Shown: positions 1 to 10,806 of the stretch, in pieces
How the letters are laid out: each line of letters opens with the position of its first letter
Position numbering within the stretch: the first letter of the stretch is position 1
Origin: Promethearchaeia archaeon
GTDB lineage: Archaea; Asgardarchaeota; Lokiarchaeia; Sigyniarchaeales; SOKP01
Direction: 5' to 3'
Length of the DNA stretch: 10,956 nt
NCBI GenBank assembly: GCA_029856105.1
Contig: JAHQWH010000008.1
Span: 1 to 10,956, forward strand
Program-made: the position numbers and the translations under genes
Notes under the pieces: model-generated
Databases searched by the model: none
The model's input: only the letters and a program-made list of their open reading frames with translations
Told to the model about the DNA's origin: nothing

Positions 1-670
1 GATTGGGATCAGTCGCCGTCCAAGAAATGCTCTGCCCGGTATATCCCGCTTCCACAGTGAAATTATTAGGGCTAACGGTTATAACCGGATTGGTCGTGTC
101 TTCAACTGTAAAATCGACGCTATCGGTGATGAAATGTCCATAATCGTCTGTGAATTTAACCGTATAAACGTACGATCCTACGCCAAATCCATCGGGGATG
201 TTGTAGTTAATTGCATTTCCGCTCGTCCATGCGGTTTGACCTGCAACTATTCCCGTCCCTAGCAGTTCGATCGTATAATTGTCCGGATTTGCATCAGTTG
301 CCGTCCAAGAAATGCTCTGCCCCGTATATCCCGCTTCCACAGTGAAATTATTAGGGCTAACGGTTATAACCGGATTGGTCGTGTCTTCAACTGTAAAATC
401 GACGCTATCGGTCATGAAATGTCCATAATCGTCTGTGAAGTTAACCGTATAAACGTACGATCCTACGCCAAATCCATCGGGGATGTTGTAGTTAATTGCA
501 TTTCCGCTCGTCCATGCGGTTGGACCTGCAACTATTCCCGTCCCTAGCAGTTCGATCGTATAATTGTCCGGATTTGCATCAGTTGCCGTCCAAGAAATGC
601 TCTGCCCCGTATATCCCGCTTCCACAGTGAAATCGCTCGGAGCGTTTGATATTATCGGGTCTTCCATATC
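1..670 (-). repeat. Tandem 285-nt (95-aa) Ig-like domain repeats: two complete (670-386, 385-101) and one partial (100 to beyond 1)
   Basis: tccacagtga recurs at 51, 336 and 621. Unit: DTTNPVITVSPNNFTVEAGYTGQSISWTATDANPDNYTIELLGTGIVAGPTAWTSGNAINYNIPDGFGVGSYVYTVNFTDDYGHFMTDSVDFTVE. The DTTxP start, WTATD and GSYxYTVxFTDxxG motifs are typical of prokaryotic Ig-like stalk domains. Confidence 0.88.
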
Positions 671-2602
671 AACTCTCTTTCGGACTTGAATGACTGCCAA
701 GCCCGAACTACCATCCGCCAAGTAGGCGTAATCTCCGCTCACGTAAATGCCATATCCAGATCCGGCCGTGTTTTCGTAAACGGGCGTTCCCGGGTTTGTC
801 GGGTCGGAAATGTCGATAACCGCCAAGCCCGAACTACCAGCCGCCAAGTAGGCATAATCTCCGCTCACGTAAACGCCTCGTGCTAATCCGGGCGTATCTA
901 CGTAATTGACCGTTTCCGGGTTTGTCGGGTTGGATATGTTGATAACCGCCAAACCCGAACCATAATCCGCCACATAAGCGTAGTCTCCGCTCACGTAAAT
1001 GCCATGTGCAGTTCCAGTCGTGTCTGCGTAATTGACCGTTTCCGGGTTTGTCGGGTCGGAAATGTTGATAACCGCCAAGCCCGAACTACCATCCGCCAAG
1101 TAGGCGTAATCTCCGCTCACGTAAACATCACGTGCCTCTCCAGTCGTGTCTGCGTAATTGACCGTTTCCGGGTTTGTAGGGTCGGATATATTGATAACCG
1201 CCAAACCCGAAGTGTAATCCGCCACATAGGCGTAATCTCCGCTTAAGTAAACGCCAGCTGCAGATCCAGCCGTATCTGCATAATTGACCGTTTCTGGGTT
1301 TGTCGGGTCGGATATATCGATGACCGCCAAGCCCGAAGGGCCATCCGCCACATAGGCGTAGTCTCCGCTCACGTAAACGCCATATGCCCATCCAGTTGTG
1401 TCATTGTAGACGGGCGTTCCCGGGTTTGTCGGGTCGGATATATCGATGACCGCCAAGCCCGAACTCCAATCCGCTACATAGGCGTAGTCTCCGCTCACGT
1501 AAATTCTTCCTGCAGATCCGGTCGTGGGTTCGTAAACAGGCGTTGCCGGATCTATAGGCTCGGTAATATCGATGACCGCTAACCCCGAACTATAATCCGC
1601 CACATAGGCGTAGTCCCCGCTCACGTAAACGCCACGTGCAAGTCCGGTCGTATCCTCGTAGACAGGCGTTTCCGGGTCTGTCGGGTCGGAAATACCGATG
1701 ACCGCCAAGCCCGAACTATAATCTGCCACATAGGCGTAATCTCCGCTCACGTAAACGCCATATACACCCCCAGTTGTATCTTCGTAGACGGGCGTTCCCG
1801 GGTCTGTCGGGTCGGAAATATCGATGACCGCCAAGCCGAAAAGATCATTCGCCACGTAAGCGTAATCTCCACTCACGTAAACACCATATGCACGTCCGAT
1901 CGTATCTTCGTAAACGGGCATTCCCGGGTTTATCGGGTTGGAAATATCAATGACTGCCAAGCCTGAACCATCATCCGCTACGTAAGCATAATCTCCGCTC
2001 ACGTAAACGCCGTTTGCATATCCTGTCGTGTCTTCGTAGACGGGCGTTCCCGGGTTTGTTGGGTCGGAAATGTTGATAACCGCTAAGCCCGAACCACCAT
2101 TCGCTATGTAGGCGTAATCTCCGCTCACGTAAACATCATACGCAGTTCCGGTCGTTCCTTCGTAAACAGGCGTCCCCGGGTTTGTTGGGTCGGAAATATT
2201 GACGATCGCTAAGCCGGAACTATGATCTGCCACATAGGCGTAATCTCCGCTCACGTACACACTAATTGCAGATCCGGTTGTGTCTTCGTAGACGGGCGTT
2301 CCCGGGTTTGTCGGGTCGAAAATATTGACGACCGCTAACCCCGAAGTACTATCCGCCACGTAGGCGTAATCTCCGCTCACATACACGCCAATTGCAGATC
2401 CGGCCGTGTTTTCGTAGTAAACAGAAGACTCTTGGGGTGTTCGTGTATTAATAATATCGTTAGGATCCCTTTCGTCAATGGGAATTTCGATATCTCTCTG
2501 AATACTTATCAACAAGTTTGGAATTACGATAAACATTGAAATAAATAGAACAATCAGCAAGATATTTATTTTTTTTATTTTTTTTGATTTCCTTCTCATC
2601 AT
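1..2602 (-). CDS. Large secreted or surface-anchored protein: N-terminal signal/TM anchor, 14 LVIVD-type beta-propeller repeats and tandem Ig-like domains (3' end runs off the window)
   Basis: Manual translation gives an open frame from ATG 2602 (or ATG 2599) to the window edge, with SD AGGTGA at 2606-2611. N-terminus MMRRKSKKIKKINILLIVLFISMFIVIPNLL is basic then hydrophobic. It is followed by repeats of VYEDTTGxAxGVYVSGDYAYVADxxSGLAVIDISDPTNPGTP and then 95-aa beta-rich repeats. Absent from the ORF track, presumably because there is no stop in the window. Confidence 0.93.
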   Translation of the reverse strand, partial: MMRRKSKKIKKINILLIVLFISMFIVIPNLLISIQRDIEIPIDERDPNDIINTRTPQESSVYYENTAGSAIGVYVSGDYAYVADSTSGLAVVNIFDPTNPGTPVYEDTTGSAISVYVSGDYAYVADHSSGLAIVNISDPTNPGTPVYEGTTGTAYDVYVSGDYAYIANGGSGLAVINISDPTNPGTPVYEDTTGYANGVYVSGDYAYVADDGSGLAVIDISNPINPGMPVYEDTIGRAYGVYVSGDYAYVANDLFGLAVIDISDPTDPGTPVYEDTTGGVYGVYVSGDYAYVADYSSGLAVIGISDPTDPETPVYEDTTGLARGVYVSGDYAYVADYSSGLAVIDITEPIDPATPVYEPTTGSAGRIYVSGDYAYVADWSSGLAVIDISDPTNPGTPVYNDTTGWAYGVYVSGDYAYVADGPSGLAVIDISDPTNPETVNYADTAGSAAGVYLSGDYAYVADYTSGLAVINISDPTNPETVNYADTTGEARDVYVSGDYAYLADGSSGLAVINISDPTNPETVNYADTTGTAHGIYVSGDYAYVADYGSGLAVINISNPTNPETVNYVDTPGLARGVYVSGDYAYLAAGSSGLAVIDISDPTNPGTPVYENTAGSGYGIYVSGDYAYLADGSSGLAVIQVRKRVDMEDPIISNAPSDFTVEAGYTGQSISWTATDANPDNYTIELLGTGIVAGPTAWTSGNAINYNIPDGFGVGSYVYTVNFTDDYGHFMTDSVDFTVEDTTNPVITVSPNNFTVEAGYTGQSISWTATDANPDNYTIELLGTGIVAGQTAWTSGNAINYNIPDGFGVGSYVYTVKFTDDYGHFITDSVDFTVEDTTNPVITVSPNNFTVEAGYTGQSISWTATDPN
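683..2419 (-). repeat. 14 tandem 126-nt (42-aa) LVIVD-type repeats
   Basis: The Gly codon of the VSGD motif recurs at 734, 860, 986, 1112, 1238, 1364, 1490, 1616, 1742, 1868, 1994, 2120, 2246 and 2372 with no indels. The consensus VxVSGDYAYVAD..SGLAVIDISDP.NP matches the LVIVD repeat pattern. Confidence 0.93.
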
Positions 2603-2666: not shown

Positions 2667-2758
2667 TGTAAATCGCATATTAAATACTCTTCATGAAAAT
2701 CCAAAAAACCCCATATGAAAAGTACAAGGGATATATTTCAAATATAAAATATTGAAGA

Positions 2759-2809
2759 CAGCACGATTATATTAACTACTATTATGAACAGAAAGAAAAA
2801 TTTGAGAAT
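2759..2809 (+). pseudogene. Gene fragment copy R1 (QHDYINYYYEQKEKFEN) of an unknown protein
   Basis: Aligns codon for codon with 7579-7629 and 9772-9822; differences fall mainly at third codon positions. Confidence 0.7.
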
Positions 2810-2855
2810 AGAAGGAGTTTAATTAATAGAGTTTTCAATGTCAGATTAATATGAG

Positions 2856-3293
2856 CTACATGAAAGGTCTAAAGTCTCTCTTCTTACCTAATTTGTCCAT
2901 TATGTACGCAGCTCCACCATATGATAATACTGTACCCAAGATGAAAATTATAGTGCTCAATATGCCGTGATACCCACGAAAGGGGGCCCATGGTGCCACA
3001 AAAAGAATGTAATTGACGAAAAGCCATATCGGAAATCCCATAGCCGACGCTCCACCGACTGTCCATATTAATCTATAGATAGTTCTGCTATTTAATTTTC
3101 TGACATAGTAGATACCGAACAGAAAAAGAGGGATTAAGAAAGTTGGAAGAAGTACTCCTATTAGTGGTAGAAATCCTCTGAAATACTCGATCCAGCCCAT
3201 TAATGTTGTACCTATATAAACGCCAATTGTAACCCATAACCAATTCTCAGTAAAATTTTTCCAGATAATCTTAATCTTTTCTTTTACATTCAT
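2856..3293 (-). CDS. Hypothetical membrane protein, about 4 TM helices (145 aa from ATG 3293)
   Basis: The ORF track extends to TTG 3365, which overlaps the upstream gene; ATG 3293 (MNVKEKIKIIW) is the more plausible start. Four hydrophobic segments. Confidence 0.8.
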   Translation of the reverse strand: MNVKEKIKIIWKNFTENWLWVTIGVYIGTTLMGWIEYFRGFLPLIGVLLPTFLIPLFLFGIYYVRKLNSRTIYRLIWTVGGASAMGFPIWLFVNYILFVAPWAPFRGYHGILSTIIFILGTVLSYGGAAYIMDKLGKKRDFRPFM

Positions 3294-3324
3294 TCCCAAT
3301 AACACTGAATTTTGCAAACACTCT

Positions 3325-3546
3325 TTATTTTTTCTTTTTACATTTTTTATAAAATCTAATACCAAGAAAACCTATTAATATACCAACTATTTCTGATAAA
3401 AGAGGGAATGGATTGTAGTAAACAAAAAGGAAAATCATCCCAATAGTCATTATAATGGTCATAGCACAAATACTAACGGTCAACCATTTTAACCTTTCGC
3501 CGATTTCTTCTTTATTCCAATAATCTTTTTCTTCTGTTTTTACCAT
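3325..3546 (-). CDS. Small hypothetical 2-TM membrane protein (73 aa)
   Basis: ATG start, two hydrophobic helices, Lys-rich tail consistent with the positive-inside rule, co-oriented with neighbours. Confidence 0.7.
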   Translation of the reverse strand: MVKTEEKDYWNKEEIGERLKWLTVSICAMTIIMTIGMIFLFVYYNPFPLLSEIVGILIGFLGIRFYKKCKKKK

Positions 3547-3705
3547 ACTTTATTCAATTTTCTTAATTTGACTAATTTGTAAGATTCAAAGTAAGTTAAT
3601 AAACGTTGTGTACTACCTAAGCAGATAATTAAATACGATTCTTCTTGAACAGTCTAGTTTTTTGAATCTGAATTAAAGGTTTCTAATTATATGATTTTTA
3701 TTTAA

Positions 3706-3975
3706 TTAATCTCTAATTTTAAATAATATTAAGTAAAATAATAGAATTAAACCCCCTATTGTAAGAATGGCCCCTAAAACAATTAGATCATAAATCCATT
3801 TAAGTATAGAAGGTTTGGCAGATACCAAATAAGGTAGATATTCTGCGGGGGTTGAATTTAATTTAATAATCAGAAATATTGATAACGATACTATTAAAAT
3901 TGTTCCTAATAGGATTATTACTAAAGCAAAATAGAATAAACTGTTTAATTTGATATGCATTTTTAATGAGTTCAT
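3706..3975 (-). CDS. Small hypothetical 2-TM membrane protein (89 aa)
   Basis: Two long hydrophobic segments; BRE/TATA-like GAAAAAAAAATATAAAT about 25 nt upstream of ATG 3975. Confidence 0.7.
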   Translation of the reverse strand: MNSLKMHIKLNSLFYFALVIILLGTILIVSLSIFLIIKLNSTPAEYLPYLVSAKPSILKWIYDLIVLGAILTIGGLILLFYLILFKIRD

Positions 3976-4091
3976 TATCTTCTTAGATTCAACTAAAATT
4001 TATATTTTTTTTTCTATATATATTGAATAGTATGAAGTTGTATGGCCCTTGTCTTACCATACCAATGAAAAACGATAAACCTAACTCTAAT

Positions 4092-4505
4092 TTAGTAATA
4101 CAACCACTTCAAAGTTTCTGGAATTAGGACAATGTAAAAAAGAAAACTTTCTAGAATCATTTCTATGATGACGATTATGAGAATAATGACTAAGGATTCT
4201 TGCGTATTTTGTTTATATACAAACTTAAAAATCTTAACACCAAGAAAGATATTAATAAAGAATGTTACGATTACGAGTATAATCGGATAAAGTATATAAG
4301 TTTGAGAAAAGGGGTCAAGAACTAGATCAAGAATGAGATTCGTTATTATCAATATGAGGAATATTACTGTTCTCCAACAAAGAATAAAGTATATAGAGAT
4401 TCTAAATCGATAGACCCACCCCTTTTTCCTTTCATACCAATTGATAAGGATTATCCCGATTATAATGATTATGTTATAGCGTAAAAACTCAGTGATTATG
4501 TCCAT
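4092..4505 (-). CDS. Hypothetical membrane protein, about 4 TM helices (137 aa)
   Basis: Ile/Leu/Phe-rich ORF with four hydrophobic segments; SD-like AAGGT about 8 nt upstream of the ATG. Confidence 0.8.
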   Translation of the reverse strand: MDIITEFLRYNIIIIIGIILINWYERKKGWVYRFRISIYFILCWRTVIFLILIITNLILDLVLDPFSQTYILYPIILVIVTFFINIFLGVKIFKFVYKQNTQESLVIILIIVIIEMILESFLFYIVLIPETLKWLYY

Positions 4506-4553
4506 AATAGTCTTACCTTTTTTCTTGCACCATCTAAGAATAATTTCATCTAT

Positions 4554-6020
4554 TCATTCACGAGATTTAATTGAAGGAAGGGTTTTTTTTATTGTATATA
4601 CAATCACAACTAAAATAAGGCAAATAATGACAGTCATAGCTGGAAAGCTAAATAACAAATATGAGTTGAGTGCGTAAGGGTCTTGTAAAAATACTTGAGC
4701 ATTCATGTTCATTAGTAACAACTGAAAAATGTATAAACCAACTAATCCACTACTGACAGAAAGTAATATGACTGAATATGTCTTGGATAAGTGAAACCTA
4801 AACCAATTAGTTTTAAATTCCCTAGAGTTATCAATATTTTCGATAATATTATCTAAACGATGGTTTTTTAATATTTTTCCAATTGGATAATAACAGAAAA
4901 TTATAATCATGATTAATATAATATCAAATAAATTAGGGCCAAATAGTGTAAAACCAGTAGCACCTCCAAATAAAAGAATAAAAGTTAGATAGACATAAGT
5001 GAAAAAAACAATGTAGAGAAGTGCTAAAGATAGTAAAATTAATGCTCTATGAGGAGTTAATTTTACTTGAAACCACGAAAGCTCATCAGAAGTTTTCATT
5101 TCTTTATAATTTTGTTCTTTAAGAAAAAAACTAGTGATCATGAGAGCTAAACAAATACACAGAAAACTTATCGTTTTAATGAAGTCTTCATTTTGGTATG
5201 GATTAGGAGCATTGGAAGATAATCCTAAAAGAGATGATATTTCATAAGTGAATAATGCGAGGTGACAAAAGATCCTAGCTGAAAGGAGAATAAACACCAT
5301 AAAAGAAGCGATAAAAATAAGAAGACTATAATTCTTAATAATTTTCTTTGAAGGATTCATGGGTTTGCCTCTTCGAACTACATATAGACTGTAAAGACAA
5401 AGCAAAAAGAATGTTGCCTTTATTGCAAGTGGAACATTGTCTAACAAAATTTCATGCGAAGTTGCTTGATATAAACCCTCTGGAATCCAACAAAGCGATT
5501 CAAGCAACCCAAATCCAAATGAAGGATACAAAATTGATTCTAAAAAAAGTTGTACTATGAAAAATATCCCTACTAATGATGCACTAAATATAAATAACGA
5601 CTGGCCGTGAGATATTTTTAAACCAAGCCAGTTCACAATTCTTTCTTGATGAATGATTTTTCCTTTAATCTTGTGCTTGGCATTTTTGTGCCTTAAAATT
5701 TTTTTTAAAGCATAGATGCTTAGGATAAGATATATGGTAGATATAATTATGCTTATAAGAGGTCGGAATAAAGGGTAGATCAGATAATTTTCATGATAGT
5801 GTTGTGGTTCAGACAAGTAAGCAGGAAGAATGGAGAATAGGAACTGAAATAAATTGAGGAAAATATCTCCAGCTAAAGTAAAGGGGAGCATAAAAATACC
5901 TATAAGGGATAAAATCAAAAATAAACTGGTTTGCGAACGATTTAATTCAAATTTGAATAGTGTCATTGGAGAGTAGTTTAAATGTGATTCTTGTTTTTCT
6001 TTAACTTCCATAATGATCAT
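4554..6020 (-). CDS. Hypothetical polytopic membrane protein (about 10 TM) built from five degenerate 2-TM units
   Basis: 488-aa ORF with a recurring motif ahead of each helix pair (LFKFELNRSQ, NWLGLKISHGQS, SWFQVKLTPHRA, NWFRFHLSKTYS). Confidence 0.88.
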   Translation of the reverse strand: MIIMEVKEKQESHLNYSPMTLFKFELNRSQTSLFLILSLIGIFMLPFTLAGDIFLNLFQFLFSILPAYLSEPQHYHENYLIYPLFRPLISIIISTIYLILSIYALKKILRHKNAKHKIKGKIIHQERIVNWLGLKISHGQSLFIFSASLVGIFFIVQLFLESILYPSFGFGLLESLCWIPEGLYQATSHEILLDNVPLAIKATFFLLCLYSLYVVRRGKPMNPSKKIIKNYSLLIFIASFMVFILLSARIFCHLALFTYEISSLLGLSSNAPNPYQNEDFIKTISFLCICLALMITSFFLKEQNYKEMKTSDELSWFQVKLTPHRALILLSLALLYIVFFTYVYLTFILLFGGATGFTLFGPNLFDIILIMIIIFCYYPIGKILKNHRLDNIIENIDNSREFKTNWFRFHLSKTYSVILLSVSSGLVGLYIFQLLLMNMNAQVFLQDPYALNSYLLFSFPAMTVIICLILVVIVYTIKKTLPSIKSRE

Positions 6021-6097
6021 TCTTTATTTTTTAATGCTTAATTGTTTGATTAATTTAAAAAGATTCAGTACTTATAGTTGTCATACAAAACAGCTTA

Positions 6098-6115
6098 TAT
6101 GTCTTATAAGACATA
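6098..6115. promoter_or_regulatory. Perfect 18-bp palindrome TATGTCTTATAAGACATA, candidate operator
   Basis: Located in the middle of the divergent intergenic region between the 488-aa membrane gene and the wHTH-like gene. Confidence 0.6.
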
Positions 6116-6204
6116 AACGTTGTTTAATAAAAATAAATACATAAACTCATATAAGTTAGGTATAGAAGGTTTTAATAATCAGCATACTCTGTTCTATACT
6201 TAGG

Positions 6205-6666
6205 ATGAATTCTATTACTGATTTTCTAGAAAAATATAATTTAGATAGTTTTGATGAAGCGCTAGAACTTAGAGGTAATGATAAAGTCACCTTTTTTAAT
6301 GATCTAATTTCTCTATTAAGCTCAGTTTGCAGGATTTTTGATAAATTAACAACAGTATTTTCCCTTAGGGGCGGGCAAGTATTAATGAGTCTAGCAAAAT
6401 TACAGGATTATGAAGATATTATATCCAAAACGGATGTAATGAACTGTTTAAATATCGATCGGCGCGAAAAATTGATCCATGCTTTTGATGTTTTACTAGA
6501 GCATAATTACATTAAGATCAAGAAAAAAACTAGCAAATTTCACATGGTTAAATTGAATGAACAAGATAATCCCGATTTTGCATTATTTCGCGAAATTGTT
6601 CAAAGATTTTGGACTTCACCTCAGGAGGAAAAAGATAAAGCAAAATCATGGAGTGGAATAGAATGA
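6205..6666 (+). CDS. Putative winged helix-turn-helix DNA-binding protein (MarR/ArsR-like fold)
   Basis: GQVLMSLAKL..ISKTDVMNCLNI..REKLIHAFDVLLEHNYIKIKK..FHMVKLN shows a three-helix plus wing pattern. The fold call is by pattern recognition only. Confidence 0.65.
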   Translation: MNSITDFLEKYNLDSFDEALELRGNDKVTFFNDLISLLSSVCRIFDKLTTVFSLRGGQVLMSLAKLQDYEDIISKTDVMNCLNIDRREKLIHAFDVLLEHNYIKIKKKTSKFHMVKLNEQDNPDFALFREIVQRFWTSPQEEKDKAKSWSGIE

Positions 6667-7511
6667 AGAGTCAGAACCGAAAATTACTAGAAATTAATTT
6701 TGAGAATAACGAAAATACAACTCAATTTTTTACCTTGATTAAAACTGAATATTTAAAAAATTTATATCAAACATATTTTTGGTTAATTTTACTTGTTATT
6801 ATGTATGTAGTGTATCAGTTAATCACGACTCCTTTTAATCAAACCACTACAATATTCATTGTGGATCAAGTCATTATTAGTGTACTTTTTTCTTTCTATT
6901 TATTAATCCACTTTTTCAATTTAACCTATGTCAGATTTACACCTACAATTATAAATTTTCTTGAAAAAGAGTTACGCATGTTAGACTATAAGATTCAAAG
7001 AAAATATAAGATTAGACCCTCCAATTTTTTGTTTATTTGTGTTTCTATTATTGTATTTATATTCTTTACAATTGGTATTTACTATTCTTCTAATATTAAT
7101 GTAATTTCCCTTATTATGAGATTACTAATTGTATATCTTTTTACATGTATTACAATACCAGTACTTCGTGGGAGGTTACATGATATTTTTCTGGTAAACC
7201 TAAGAAATTCATATTTTGTTCAAATAGAACTGCAACTTAAATTAATTAAACATAAAGAAGTAGAATCTCAAATGGTTAAGATTTTTATGACCTCAAATAA
7301 ATTAGGTCCAAAAGAAGATCAGCCCGGACATGCTCTTTATAATAAAATAAGTGAAAAAAGATGGCTTCAAAGGAAAGATAACAAAATTTTACCTCGTTTT
7401 ATTTCTAGTGATTATCTCTTTTTTCATGAATATGCAACTTTAATAAACTTCAAGGAACAAATTTTGAATGTTGTCTCAGCAATTCGAGAGTGGGATATAA
7501 CTAAAAGTTGA
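6663..7511 (+). CDS. Hypothetical membrane protein (4 TM plus soluble C-terminal domain), translationally coupled to the wHTH gene
   Basis: ATG 6663 overlaps the upstream TGA (ATGA) and has SD GGAGTGG at 6650-6656, so it is preferred over the track start at 6648. Confidence 0.85.
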   Translation: MKSQNRKLLEINFENNENTTQFFTLIKTEYLKNLYQTYFWLILLVIMYVVYQLITTPFNQTTTIFIVDQVIISVLFSFYLLIHFFNLTYVRFTPTIINFLEKELRMLDYKIQRKYKIRPSNFLFICVSIIVFIFFTIGIYYSSNINVISLIMRLLIVYLFTCITIPVLRGRLHDIFLVNLRNSYFVQIELQLKLIKHKEVESQMVKIFMTSNKLGPKEDQPGHALYNKISEKRWLQRKDNKILPRFISSDYLFFHEYATLINFKEQILNVVSAIREWDITKS

Positions 7512-7512
7512 G

Positions 7513-7722
7513 ATGCGCCCCAAAAATAAGGTGTTTTATAATCTTATAAAAGCTCATGGAAGTGAGGAAGATAAATGGCAGCACGATTACATTAATCTTT
7601 ACTATGAATAGAAAGAAAAATTTGAAAAGAAGTACCTAAATGAATTATCCCTAATAAAATTAAATTTAAAAAAGTTTTTAGAAAAAAATATAAATATTCT
7701 AAAAACAATATTTATAAAATGA
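7513..7722 (+). pseudogene. Short reading frame containing fragment copy R2 (AHGSEEDKWQHDYINLYYE*KEKFEKK) with one in-frame TAG
   Basis: ATG at 7513, TAG at 7609-7611 where R1 and R3 have CAG and CAA, frame then open to TGA 7720-7722. Similarity to R3 spans 7552-7634. Confidence 0.6.
7674..7716 (+). promoter_or_regulatory. BRE/TATA promoter of the MBL gene overlapped by two inverted repeats
   Basis: GAAAAAAATATAAATA at 7681-7696, about 25 nt before ATG 7719. Inverted repeats GTTTTTAGAA/TTCTAAAAAC (7674-7683, 7697-7706) and TATAAATATT/AATATTTATA (7689-7698, 7707-7716). Confidence 0.5.
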
Positions 7723-8528
7723 GTGATAACAACCAACATTTTAAAATAGTTAAACATAAAGATTATTTATATGTAATACAAGAAAATATTTCCATAGTTC
7801 ACTCTGCTTACACAAATGATCCTCTAAATATGTATCTAATTTTAGGAAATCATTCTGCTTTATTAATTGACACGGGATGCGGGATATCTCCTTTAAAACC
7901 AATAGTAGATAAACTAATTGGTTCAAGAAAATTATTAGTTTTTAATTCACACGCCCATTGGGATCATGTTTTAGGTAATGAAGAATTTGGTGAAGTATAT
8001 ATTCATGAAAATGAAGAAATAATAGTCTCTGAACCTTACAATCTTTCGTATACAAAGGAATTATTTGCCAAATATTATGCCAATAGAAATTTTTCTATTC
8101 CTCCTGCGAAAATTATTAAAAAATTAAGAGATGGAGATATTTTTGACTTAGGAAATATCAGTATTGAAGTAATTCACGCACCGGGCCATTCTTCAGGCTC
8201 AATATGTCTACTTACAAATAAGAACGAACTTTTTACTGGAGATGTTGCATATTACGGAGATCAGTTTTTACCCAGAAAAAGACACATTCCCATAGTTCTC
8301 GAAAGCCTTTCTAAATTGATAAAATTATGTGAGAAAAACAAGTCGCTCGAACTTTATCCATCACATAGACAATTTCCATGTGATATAAATCTTTTAACTG
8401 AGCTTTACAAGGGAGTTAGAAATATAAAAAATCTATGGCATACAAGAAATCCATTTGATCTTTTTTATGCGTGGGAAATTAAAGATGAAGAAAATGATAA
8501 GTTTAGATATTTTGTATCTAGACTTTAA
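7719..8528 (+). CDS. MBL-fold metallo-hydrolase (glyoxalase II / beta-lactamase superfamily II)
   Basis: LLIDTG, HAHWDH (HxHxDH), PGHSSGS, LFTGD and PSH metal-ligand motifs occur in the canonical order. Confidence 0.95.
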   Translation: MSDNNQHFKIVKHKDYLYVIQENISIVHSAYTNDPLNMYLILGNHSALLIDTGCGISPLKPIVDKLIGSRKLLVFNSHAHWDHVLGNEEFGEVYIHENEEIIVSEPYNLSYTKELFAKYYANRNFSIPPAKIIKKLRDGDIFDLGNISIEVIHAPGHSSGSICLLTNKNELFTGDVAYYGDQFLPRKRHIPIVLESLSKLIKLCEKNKSLELYPSHRQFPCDINLLTELYKGVRNIKNLWHTRNPFDLFYAWEIKDEENDKFRYFVSRL

Positions 8529-8764
8529 TAAGTTGTTTCGATCTAACAAGCTTCTTATTATTGAGATTCTGTGTTTTTTAAATATAATCGAAACATTAAC
8601 ATAATCACGGTCAAAAAAGTAAAAAAAGGATTTATGTTTAAAATCTTTGCTGAACTTGCCGATTCTGTAATCTATGTTATCAAAGATATAGTTTTTTTAT
8701 TTTTGAACTTTTAATATTTAGAAAGACCAAAATTTAAATTAATCGTTGTTTTTACGATTCTTTT

Positions 8765-9226
8765 CTAAATCTTTCGTGAAAGCCAAACTCCTATAAACGA
8801 TAAAACACCAGCTATAATAGGACCAATGCTGCCAAAATTGGGTCTATAATAACCCCAACTAACACCTATAGCATCACCCATTATAATATTGTATATAAGA
8901 GACCCCGCAATAAGGATAATACCGCAAATTAATAATAAACCTTGTAGAATTTTTCTATTTTTAATACCCTTACGAGACATTAGCGCGGTAAATATTAAAG
9001 TTACTACACTTATTATATTTAAGATCAAGAAAATTATCCCCGTCAAAAAAATATACTCTGGAATAAGGACCACTACCGAAGCAGGAGCTATTGAAGAACC
9101 CCACATCCATACAAAAGCTATCCCTGGGGTATAATAAGCCGTAATCGCAGGACTTATTATCGCAATGATTACTATCAGCGCATCTATACTAAGATATAGC
9201 CAAAATTTACTTTTTAAATCAACCAT
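8765..9226 (-). CDS. Hypothetical 4-TM membrane protein (153 aa)
   Basis: Four hydrophobic helices, with VWMWG after TM1 and YRPNFGSIGPIIAGVL at TM4. Confidence 0.85.
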   Translation of the reverse strand: MVDLKSKFWLYLSIDALIVIIAIISPAITAYYTPGIAFVWMWGSSIAPASVVVLIPEYIFLTGIIFLILNIISVVTLIFTALMSRKGIKNRKILQGLLLICGIILIAGSLIYNIIMGDAIGVSWGYYRPNFGSIGPIIAGVLSFIGVWLSRKI

Positions 9227-9249
9227 TTTAATGTCAATCTAATTATTGG

Positions 9250-9320
9250 TCTTTACACTTTTGTATTAAAATTTGTAAGACAAGAATAATATTGATAATT
9301 GATTATTTAATGCTTTTGTA
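9250..9320 (-). promoter_or_regulatory. Two tandem BRE/TATA-like elements upstream of the 153-aa gene
   Basis: TACAAAAGTGTAAAGA (9265-9250) and TACAAAAGCATTAAATA (9320-9304), both resembling 2666-2650. Confidence 0.45.
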
Positions 9321-9663
9321 ACACTTATTCATTAAAATTTTAATTTTGCTCCTGTTTTATCTCTTGGTCATCAGATTAATTTTTTGCCTAAACTCATATA
9401 AATCTTTCAATGCCAAGAAGATTAATTCTTAACAAAAATTCCTTTAGAACAAGATATTCAGGCTCTTACCAAAGAATTGGATAAAAAGAAAAATAAAGAA
9501 AGTTAACAAAACAGAACCAAAAAAAAATAAGTATTAATTTTTTATAGGTTGATTTCTGAAGAGATTCATAAGTTAAAATTGTTATTTATTAATCAATAAT
9601 ATTTAAATAAATGATGAAATTTTTAAAATCACTCTTTTGAAATGCTTTTTGTTTTACCTTTAA

Positions 9664-9828
9664 TCTTTATACAAGATATATATCGAAACTCACGACGAGT
9701 GGTATTGTACTGAATGTCATGAAAACGATCGCATCTGGTACCCCGCACATGGAAGTGCAGAAAATAGATGGCAAAATGACTATATCAATATGTACTATGA
9801 ACAAAAAGAAAAGTTTGAAAAGAAGTAA
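9664..9828 (+). pseudogene. Longest fragment copy R3: SLYKIYIETHDEWYCTECHENDRIWYPAHGSAENRWQNDYINMYYEQKEKFEKK*, 5'-truncated, containing CxxCH
   Basis: 54 sense codons between TAA 9661-9663 and TAA 9826-9828, with no ATG/GTG/TTG in the 5' part; homologous to R1 and R2. Confidence 0.7.
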
Positions 9829-9890
9829 AAATAAAGGAAAAGAGAATTCTATAAAATAGCTCTGCCAATTCGCCCAAATAATGCTTTAGA

Positions 9891-10289
9891 TTAAACCCTG
9901 CGGCCCCTATGGCCCCCCTTGCGCCGGCAGTGGTCGTGAGATTTAGGGGTGACTTCTTCTATTCGACCTACGCGTAGTCCAGAACGAGCGAGTGCGCGTA
10001 TGCATGCTTGAGCCCCAGGTCCGGGAGTTTGGCTTTTATTTCCACCGGGCGCTCTTACTTTAATGTGGACGCCCAAAACGCCTTTATCTCTAAGTTCGTT
10101 AGCCACGCGGAACCCGCACTGCATTGCCGCGTATGGATTCGATTCGTCTCGGTCAGCTTTAACTACCATACCGCCGCTACATTTTGCGAACGTTTCACCG
10201 CCGCTGAGGTCCGTAGCTGTAACAATAGTGTTGTTGTAGCTGCTAAAGATGTGAACGATTGCCCATTTCATTTGTTCTGATTTACTCAT
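9891..10289 (-). CDS. rps11: 30S ribosomal protein S11 (uS11), archaeal type
   Basis: [46 protein letters not shown] and RGRRV motifs. Confidence 0.98.
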
Positions 10290-10302
10290 ATTAATTATCT
10301 CG

Positions 10303-10806
10303 TTAAGTCTTTTCTTTAACTGTTGTTAGAGGGCTACTGGGAGCGTAACCAATGAAATCTTCTTCGTCTTTTTTTACTATGTAAGAAGGGGCGTCTATTT
10401 TTTTGCCTATTACTTGAATGTGTCCGTGAACAATAAATTGTCTCGCTTGATAGATTGTTTTGGCAAACCCTTTCTCAAAGACCAAAGTTTGTAGTCGTCT
10501 TTTTAATAAGTCCTCAACGGTGAGCGATAACACGTCCTCGAATCTTGCTTCTGGACCTACTACGCCGATTCTGATTAACTTCTTACTTAGCGTTTCTTGA
10601 ACCTCTGCAGCTCTTTCTTTTGATAACGTTCTAGATTGTCGCGCTATTCTTCTCCAATTAACCAGCATGGAACGCATTTTCCAGAACTCTCGTTTATTTC
10701 TAAGTCCGTATTTACCTAGGAATTCAAGTTCTTCAGCCAACCTTTCTTTTTGAAAGGGGTGTTTTGGTTTTTTAAATTTTTTTTTTAAGCGTCGTGGGTC
10801 TCCGAT
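10303..10806 (-). CDS. rps4: 30S ribosomal protein S4 (uS4), archaeal type, 167 aa, apparent ATC start
   Basis: [15 protein letters not shown] and [10 protein letters not shown] motifs. The frame extends 22 codons upstream of the track's TTG to ATC-GGA-GAC-CCA ([18 protein letters not shown]), matching the conserved archaeal MGDP N-terminus. Confidence 0.95.

Follow-up and report, generated by a model that had tools for sequence, protein, structure and literature searches.

The window analysed here is a complete contig of 10,956 nucleotides (G000:C7) from a Promethearchaeia archaeon (Asgardarchaeota; Lokiarchaeia; Sigyniarchaeales; SOKP01). Its source, G000, is a metagenome-assembled genome (MAG) with a 3.66-Mb assembly, 92% complete and with 6% estimated contamination; its closest relatives stand at about 92–93% nucleotide identity, and the compared genomes are likewise all MAGs. 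The window holds broken copies of one small gene, which we call X, set among accessory genes beside a ribosomal protein cluster. A sequence-only reading of this DNA had noticed three such fragments (R1, R2 and R3) and proposed that cargo arrives repeatedly at a fixed site within X, giving an integron-like array with tandem attachment scars. That interpretation is partly supported: the fragments and the changing cargo between them are borne out, while the fixed site and the mechanism are not. Our analyses point instead to a flexible genomic island, probably shaped by duplication, recombination and deletion.

X encodes 149 amino acids (P0001), and the peptide encoded by R3 is its C-terminus in relatives of the same genus. 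Gene order in these relatives is P0002 (548 amino acids) followed by X, convergent with rps11, rps4 and rps13, of which rps11 is nearest to X. The intact P0002-X-rps11-rps4 arrangement is present in G017, G028, G004 and G034 and in more than 20 JGI metagenome loci, and we take it to be ancestral. In the window, a repeat search placed 2732–2814, 7552–7634 and 9745–9827 in a single direct-repeat family (D6), and R1, R2 and R3 all encode Q[HN]DYINxYYE[Q/*]KEKFE on the + strand. When the whole G000 assembly was searched in six frames with the R3 peptide, these three places alone were returned (E 8e-36, 3e-10 and 6e-3), so that the fragments are found at one locus and not genome-wide; a nucleotide profile of intact X genes matched the same three remnants (E 2e-68, 2e-17 and 3e-5). 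R1, R2 and R3 are thereby confirmed as co-oriented leftovers of one gene.

The extents of the fragments required some revision of those first assigned. R3 (9675..9890, +) is the resident X copy, truncated at codon 89, and takes in a frameshifted tail and the X-rps11 spacer. Its homology begins at 9675/9676, position 9664 merely opening the stop-to-stop frame; in comparison with five relatives it starts exactly at 9675 and runs through the spacer into rps11. The early stop results from a 2-bp deletion after GAAAAGAAGTA, and codons 89–138 are identical to G017 X at 50/50 amino acids, with three synonymous differences (96% nucleotide identity). Judged by its sequence, R3 is the truncated ortholog of the intact rps11-adjacent X. 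R2 (7552..7674, +; the end is approximate) covers codons 112–149 and has an in-frame TAG at 7609–7611. A fourth remnant, missed in the sequence-only reading, is a 5' piece (4054..4075, +) that comprises the X promoter-proximal region and codons 1–4 (MKND); it differs from G017:C4 26978–27000 by one mismatch in 22 nucleotides, where the chance expectation is 0 matches, and it and R2 are parts of one X copy, which we call X_b. R1 (2746..2812, +) covers codons from about 117/121 to 138 and is of the 'YYY' subtype; it may continue to about 2850 in the form of a degenerate tail with a motif (TGTCAGATT). Its nearest copies are in G019 (85–88% over 41–61 nucleotides) and a distal copy in G017:C5 (82% over 73 nucleotides).

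Pairwise non-synonymous divergence (pN) among the copies is 0.08–0.13 with synonymous sites (pS) saturated, giving a pN/pS of about 0.1; the copies therefore diverged under coding constraint, as their mostly synonymous differences had first indicated. A search of G000 found no intact orthologous X or its 5' half, only two distant paralogue pairs, and no ortholog of P0002; at this locus the genome is without the remainder of X and the whole of P0002. The 13.5 kb to the left of the window (G000:C229) contain no further X copy.

The window covers the right portion of a flexible island that lies between a 474-amino-acid gene and the rps13-rps4-rps11 cluster. The right flank, rps11 and rps4 (9891..10740, −), is 93.2% identical to G017 at the nucleotide level over 5.3 kb. 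On the left, genes for 621, 165, 137, 252 and 474 amino acids are conserved in G008, G017:C4, G009 and L088, and this flank in G000 is 92.4% identical to G017. The 474-amino-acid gene lies on G000:C229, a contig that overlaps C7 by 127 bp within the repeats of an LVIVD-protein gene and adds 13.5 kb leftwards. An alpha/beta hydrolase gene to the left of the LVIVD gene was considered as the conserved left flank and rejected, being island cargo from a multi-copy family. In the right flank, rps11 and rps4 are separated by about 190 nucleotides in G028 (L047/L008, G028:C17), L078 and perhaps L083, and by 13–16 nucleotides elsewhere; the rps11 frame ends differently in the wide-gap loci, for which a small insertion or a sequencing problem is possible.

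Between conserved flanks the island keeps a constant position while its contents differ. It measures about 1.9 kb in G008, with an MFS transporter gene and an X stump; 11.4 kb in G000, from the 474-amino-acid gene to rps11; and at least 27 kb in G017 on C4, plus probably a further 39 kb on C5 (probably about 66 kb). The island of G030 carries, in order, MFS, an X remnant, GNAT, PPDK-like, an X remnant, a 220-amino-acid gene and an X pseudogene, and contents differ again in G019 and L088. Accessory cargo is present together with remnants of both X and P0002, and relatives have differing cargo between X fragments. Cargo families at the locus across all genomes include LVIVD, MBL fold, MFS, GNAT, PPDK-like, ADH and alpha/beta hydrolase; islands of relatives also hold TIR, CBM96, DUF7000, restriction-modification and radical SAM families. 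Upstream of P0002-X, G017:C5 28903–38000 (L054) contains genes of restriction and defence type (NmeDI_C, DUF4145) along with those for a TPR protein and a radical SAM protein, and the G019 island encodes a tandem TIR-domain protein.

About 27 truncated X copies were aligned to the consensus of the intact genes, and their ends vary widely. Stumps adjoining rps11 start at codon about 16 (L082), 65 (L087), 68 (L090), 74–75 or earlier (G019, G064), 89 (G000), 112 (G002), 113 (L099), 116 (G008) and 132 (L097). One and the same upstream MFS-gene flank joins X at different points (codon 116 in G008, 132 in L097, 82 or earlier in G030), which looks like a pattern of nested deletions. Distal remnants include 5' pieces (codons 1–4, 1–16, 1–44 and 1–110), internal pieces (codons 16–68, 54–119 and 61–98) and a remnant of the P0002 3' end, and right ends span from codon 68 to the rps11 stop codon. 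Many right ends do fall at codons 134–141, the end of the conserved EKFEKK block beyond which lies a variable Lys-rich tail; native X copies also cease to align there, and the shared right boundary is therefore no crossover site. The common boundary described for the three copies in the window is real among them and fails as a junction, R2 and R3 both extending further when set against intact X. Clusters of left ends (codons 59–62, 74–75, 88 and 112) and of right ends (134–141) were rejected as breakpoints and treated as alignment artefacts, since they coincide with the edges of conserved blocks and since open reading frame callers start at Met88. No fixed crossover point with identical flanking repeats was found at either end, and the array in G000 is not bordered by an intact target copy. 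Lineages have different breakpoints at either end, X also survives as 5' and internal pieces, and a block of DNA lies inside an X copy, all of which tells against the fixed integration site first envisaged.

Cargo in the window comprises an LVIVD propeller, seven small multi-transmembrane proteins, one soluble 153-amino-acid protein and an MBL-fold hydrolase, encoded on both strands by genes with their own upstream regions. Pfam, NCBIfam and PHROGs annotate the LVIVD and MBL-fold proteins only. The LVIVD-repeat beta-propeller surface protein (2..2602, −; Pfam PF08309, E 3e-140) continues on G000:C229; its gene has 13–14 tandem 126-bp units and 285-bp repeats, where the assembly broke, and in full, on a JGI contig, encodes 965 amino acids. 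Three small membrane-protein genes, o169, o73 and o89 (2856..3975, −), are recognised from open reading frames and hydropathy. The block between the 5' and 3' remnants of X_b (4075..7542) contains o137, o488 (11 transmembrane segments), o153a (soluble) and o287. The MBL-fold hydrolase (7719–8528, +; Pfam PF00753, E 2e-18) follows R2, and o153b (8765–9226, −), a protein with five transmembrane segments, lies in the 7691..9226 segment.

Much of this cargo is shared with relatives in another order. The o89 block (3680–4061) is 92% identical to G017:C4 25647–26039, and o89 also adjoins an X copy in G009 and L088. The o137–o287 block is 90–93% identical to G017:C4 10620–15564, where it has no neighbouring X remnant, and the MBL block, 93% identical to G017, recurs in G017:C4, L088 and L091 beside different neighbours; short pieces shared by G000 and G017 are 88–96% identical. 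Taken together, the island blocks common to G000, G017 and L088 show 89–96% nucleotide identity against 92–93% for the flanks. Being as diverged as the flanks, they were present in the common ancestor and were reshuffled afterwards, which agrees with vertical descent better than with a recent arrival; at a distance of 92–93% identity, modules are reshuffled and not cleanly present or absent.

One rearrangement can be followed in detail. G017:C4 reads o89, 0.9 kb, X codons 1–16 fused to an X tail, then MBL; G000 reads o89, X codons 1–4, the o137–o287 block, X codons 112–149 with the tail, then MBL, and the junction of tail and MBL is the same in G017:C4, after the X piece of codons 1–16. Since the order differs, a 3.5-kb block lies inside an X copy in G000 and elsewhere, without X, in G017. 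Target-site duplications and terminal repeats were looked for at the ends of the 4075–7542 block and none was seen. Window positions 3571–4061 correspond to three G017 segments that abut with overlaps of 2–3 nucleotides. Duplication within islands is also evident: X copies inside G019 are 86–98% alike, the two 'YYY' copies of G017 are 94% alike, and cargo families (o169-like and j1752-like) recur within the island, so that local duplication produces copies.

Several smaller features of these blocks were recorded. Within 3571–3682, two segments (51 and 64 nucleotides) are 95–96% identical to G017:C5 307–357 and G017:C4 18006–18069; the G017:C5 site and a weaker third match, G017:C4 5895–5947, lie about 100 nucleotides upstream of j1752-family genes, and the two segments look like relocated promoter pieces. 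Positions 3560–3705 were considered as a dispersed repeat and rejected, there being only one additional 30-nucleotide match in G000. Window 6056–6157, in the divergent promoter region of o488 and o153a, matches both G017:C4 12606–12707 and 14077–14178; in G017, 1.37 kb are inserted in this region between two direct copies of about 100 bp of the segment.

Genes for mobility were sought on the islands with little result. The Phage_integrase family (PF00589) has no match on the island contigs of G000, G017, G019, G030 and G002, nor anywhere in G000, and neither Resolvase (PF00239) nor the TnpB-type family (PF07282) matches the island contigs of G000, G017, G019, G030 and G064; a recombinase linked to X copies, which the sequence-only reading had suggested looking for, was thus not encountered on these island contigs. 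No phage or mobile-element family matched among nine window cargo proteins tested (the LVIVD protein being left out), and PHROGs gave a single weak match in the window, of the MBL protein to a hydrolase family unrelated to mobility. An integron is further disfavoured by the lack of intI (PF00589) in G000 or on the relatives' island contigs, and by the nature of the recurring sequence, which is a coding remnant of X under past purifying selection and not an attC-type site. The integron-like mechanism with attachment scars hence lacks support, the island contigs having no recombinase match and the shared blocks being as diverged as the core flanks.

The X-rps11 spacer is a further element of the argument. 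After the X stop codon there is a motif, CTCTGCCAGATTGGC, often with AAAAAGAGCGCTCTCC next to it, which is predicted to fold, on the rps11 strand, into a hairpin with a T-run after it. This hairpin would serve as a terminator shared by the convergent X and rps11 genes, and such a terminator would account for the constant retention of the spacer and the X 3' end.

From these observations we consider that duplication, recombination and deletion shaped the locus, a flexible island in which X pseudogenes persist as scars, and would give this reading a probability of roughly 65%. It draws on what was established about X and its intact form, on the borders of the island, on breakpoints that vary, on shared blocks of vertical age and on the absence of recombinases from the island contigs. 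The right edge of the island would originally have been P0002 and then X, convergent on rps11. X would be dispensable and rps11 not, so that X forms a soft edge and rps11, with its terminator, a hard one; deletions or replacements from the island side would therefore halt inside X, leaving a 3' stump of arbitrary length, of which R3 would be one. The inner copies (R1, and the 5' remnant with R2) would formerly have functioned as separate genes, having arisen when segments of the island were duplicated or possibly through import from congeners, and would later have been broken by illegitimate deletions and by the insertion of other island blocks. We infer that host recombination and repair made the remnant array, through duplication and deletion.

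Certain observations sit less comfortably with this account. Second copies on a contig are co-oriented with the first in 14/14 comparisons on 10 contigs, as a directional process predicts, although tandem duplication predicts it likewise. Distal copies in G017:C5 and G064 keep part or all of the X-rps11 spacer, and a distal copy in G019:C176 keeps it up to the rps11 stop codon; new DNA has therefore repeatedly entered within about 40 nucleotides of the rps11 end, which we ascribe to selection, though it could reflect a preferred site. The X copies within G000, only 65–81% alike and having evolved under purifying selection, are either long-functional paralogues or derived from different species. 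Finally, all the genomes being MAGs, a recombinase acting in trans is possible.

These points bear on two other explanations of the array, the first of which is cassette exchange by homologous recombination with X as portable homology. Co-oriented X copies would recombine to loop out a circle of one X plus cargo, which would enter the resident X of another cell by a single crossover of Campbell type, adding cargo and duplicating X; redundant copies would then decay, and recombination of the host's RadA type would suffice. Uniform orientation agrees with this, as do cargo without mobility genes, different X subtypes within one array, and conserved stretches of 20 nucleotides or more between copies. 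A comparison of L088 8611–9497 with L091 2363–3380 is also favourable: a 730-bp segment is 96.7% identical and adjoins an X piece at 77%, a sharp mosaic boundary that suggests recent recombination between lineages. On the other side, none of about 50 loci was seen to have two intact X copies. Moreover, shared blocks and flanks are of equal age, the 3.5-kb block was relocated without an attached X, copies 65–81% identical recombine poorly, and the origin of the first duplication is left unexplained. On balance we think cassette exchange unlikely.

The second explanation, serial site-specific integration at an attachment site in the X 3' end or the spacer hairpin, is closest to the original proposal. 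A recombinase encoded elsewhere in the genome would act as it does in islands that target tRNA genes or in elements that borrow Xer. Arrays of co-oriented partial copies adjoining a conserved gene are what this would produce, and tycheposons and additive islands with partial tRNA repeats provide a precedent; distal copies that retain the spacer motif CTCTGCCAGATTGGC and cargo that differs between species are also in its favour. Against it stand the want of a fixed crossover point at either end, the 5' and internal X pieces, the absence from G000 of any intact target copy and of any PF00589 match, and island contigs free of integrases. In addition, six loci with intact P0002-X and 4–10 kb of upstream sequence have no partial X copy upstream, and the motif is accounted for as the terminator hairpin of convergent genes. 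We regard this explanation as rather improbable. A broader form, in which the X 3' end and spacer hairpin are a recombination site where recombinase-free cassettes are loaded and unloaded by a host recombinase or homologous recombination, is similarly doubtful. A chimeric contig or binning artefact, with pieces from different strains joined at the repeated X sequence, might be suspected from a MAG with 6% estimated contamination and from the frequent ending of relatives' contigs at X copies, but it can be given very little credence, since an independent 33.7-kb JGI contig (L056) is 100% identical across the whole window, a Logan contig (L057) is identical over 6795–9232, and X copies only 65–81% alike are too divergent to fool an assembler.

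Set beside known systems, the locus is closest to additive flexible islands and to tycheposon arrays. The additive islands of Alteromonas and other marine bacteria (PMC4898812) share its fixed position, conserved flanks and variable content, its accessory surface or membrane, hydrolase, transporter and defence genes, and partial copies of a border gene inside. The locus departs from them in that the border is a protein-coding gene by a ribosomal operon and not a tRNA, in its ragged partial copies that include 5' and internal pieces, in having no integrase or mobility gene that we found, and in shared cassettes as diverged as the core instead of near-identical. The tycheposons of Prochlorococcus integrate one after another at a tRNA, so that earlier arrivals are displaced towards the interior (10.1101/2020.12.28.424599). 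Common to both is the notion of stepwise accretion, in which the older partial copies of the target lie further in and degraded remnants occur, whereas the tyrosine recombinases and attachment-defined partial tRNA repeats of tycheposons (10.1101/2020.12.28.424599) have no counterpart here. The likeness to integrons is superficial, consisting of modules parted by a recurring sequence; here there are no intI and no attC-type structured sites, and cargo genes lie on both strands with their own upstream regions.

X and P0002 are themselves members of a wider set of P0002-like/X-like pairs, confined to Asgard archaea, with several copies per genome and no assigned role. No Pfam or NCBIfam family matched X. 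Its predicted structure (pLDDT 91) combines a long helical hairpin and a Cys4 zinc ribbon with a short strand and a C-terminal helix; P0002 is predicted to be all-alpha and is recorded solely as a hypothetical protein of Asgard archaea. Neither predicted model had an informative match in the PDB when searched with Foldseek and VIA-align. A coiled-coil hairpin with a C4 finger of DksA/TraR type was considered for X, and its model matched DksA at a Foldseek E of 0.7 and a TM-score of 0.37 only, with generic helical-hairpin matches (Z at most 6.5) in VIA-align. G000 carries two more intact pairs at about 31% identity, at G000:C107:8455–8787 and G000:C114:31244–31606 (L036, L034), each consisting of a protein of about 480 amino acids with a conserved G(F/I)DPLFF...RHHF motif and then a zinc-ribbon protein of about 140 amino acids. 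Multiple fragments were seen for the rps11-adjacent X subfamily only. Distant paralogues that align from residue 1 have uninterrupted frames (a few short partial hits being left out) and sit one per contig, save for two adjacent pairs (G010:C72 and G007:C2).

The locus is a true hotspot of variation, and it does not reveal a new insertion mechanism. Were the less favoured readings true, it would be a notable case of a cassette system that has no recombinase and is anchored on a gene for a protein; as a recombination site, it would be an archaeal, protein-gene-anchored counterpart of the additive tRNA islands, with junctions blurred by later deletions. The analysis also brings out an uncharacterised pair of genes restricted to Asgard archaea, encoding an all-alpha protein of about 500 amino acids and a zinc-ribbon protein of about 140. 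For one genus of Lokiarchaeia-like Asgard archaea the exact borders of a variable island are now defined, and this place, where strains swap surface, membrane, hydrolase and defence genes, offers a marker for strain-level diversity and gene flow.

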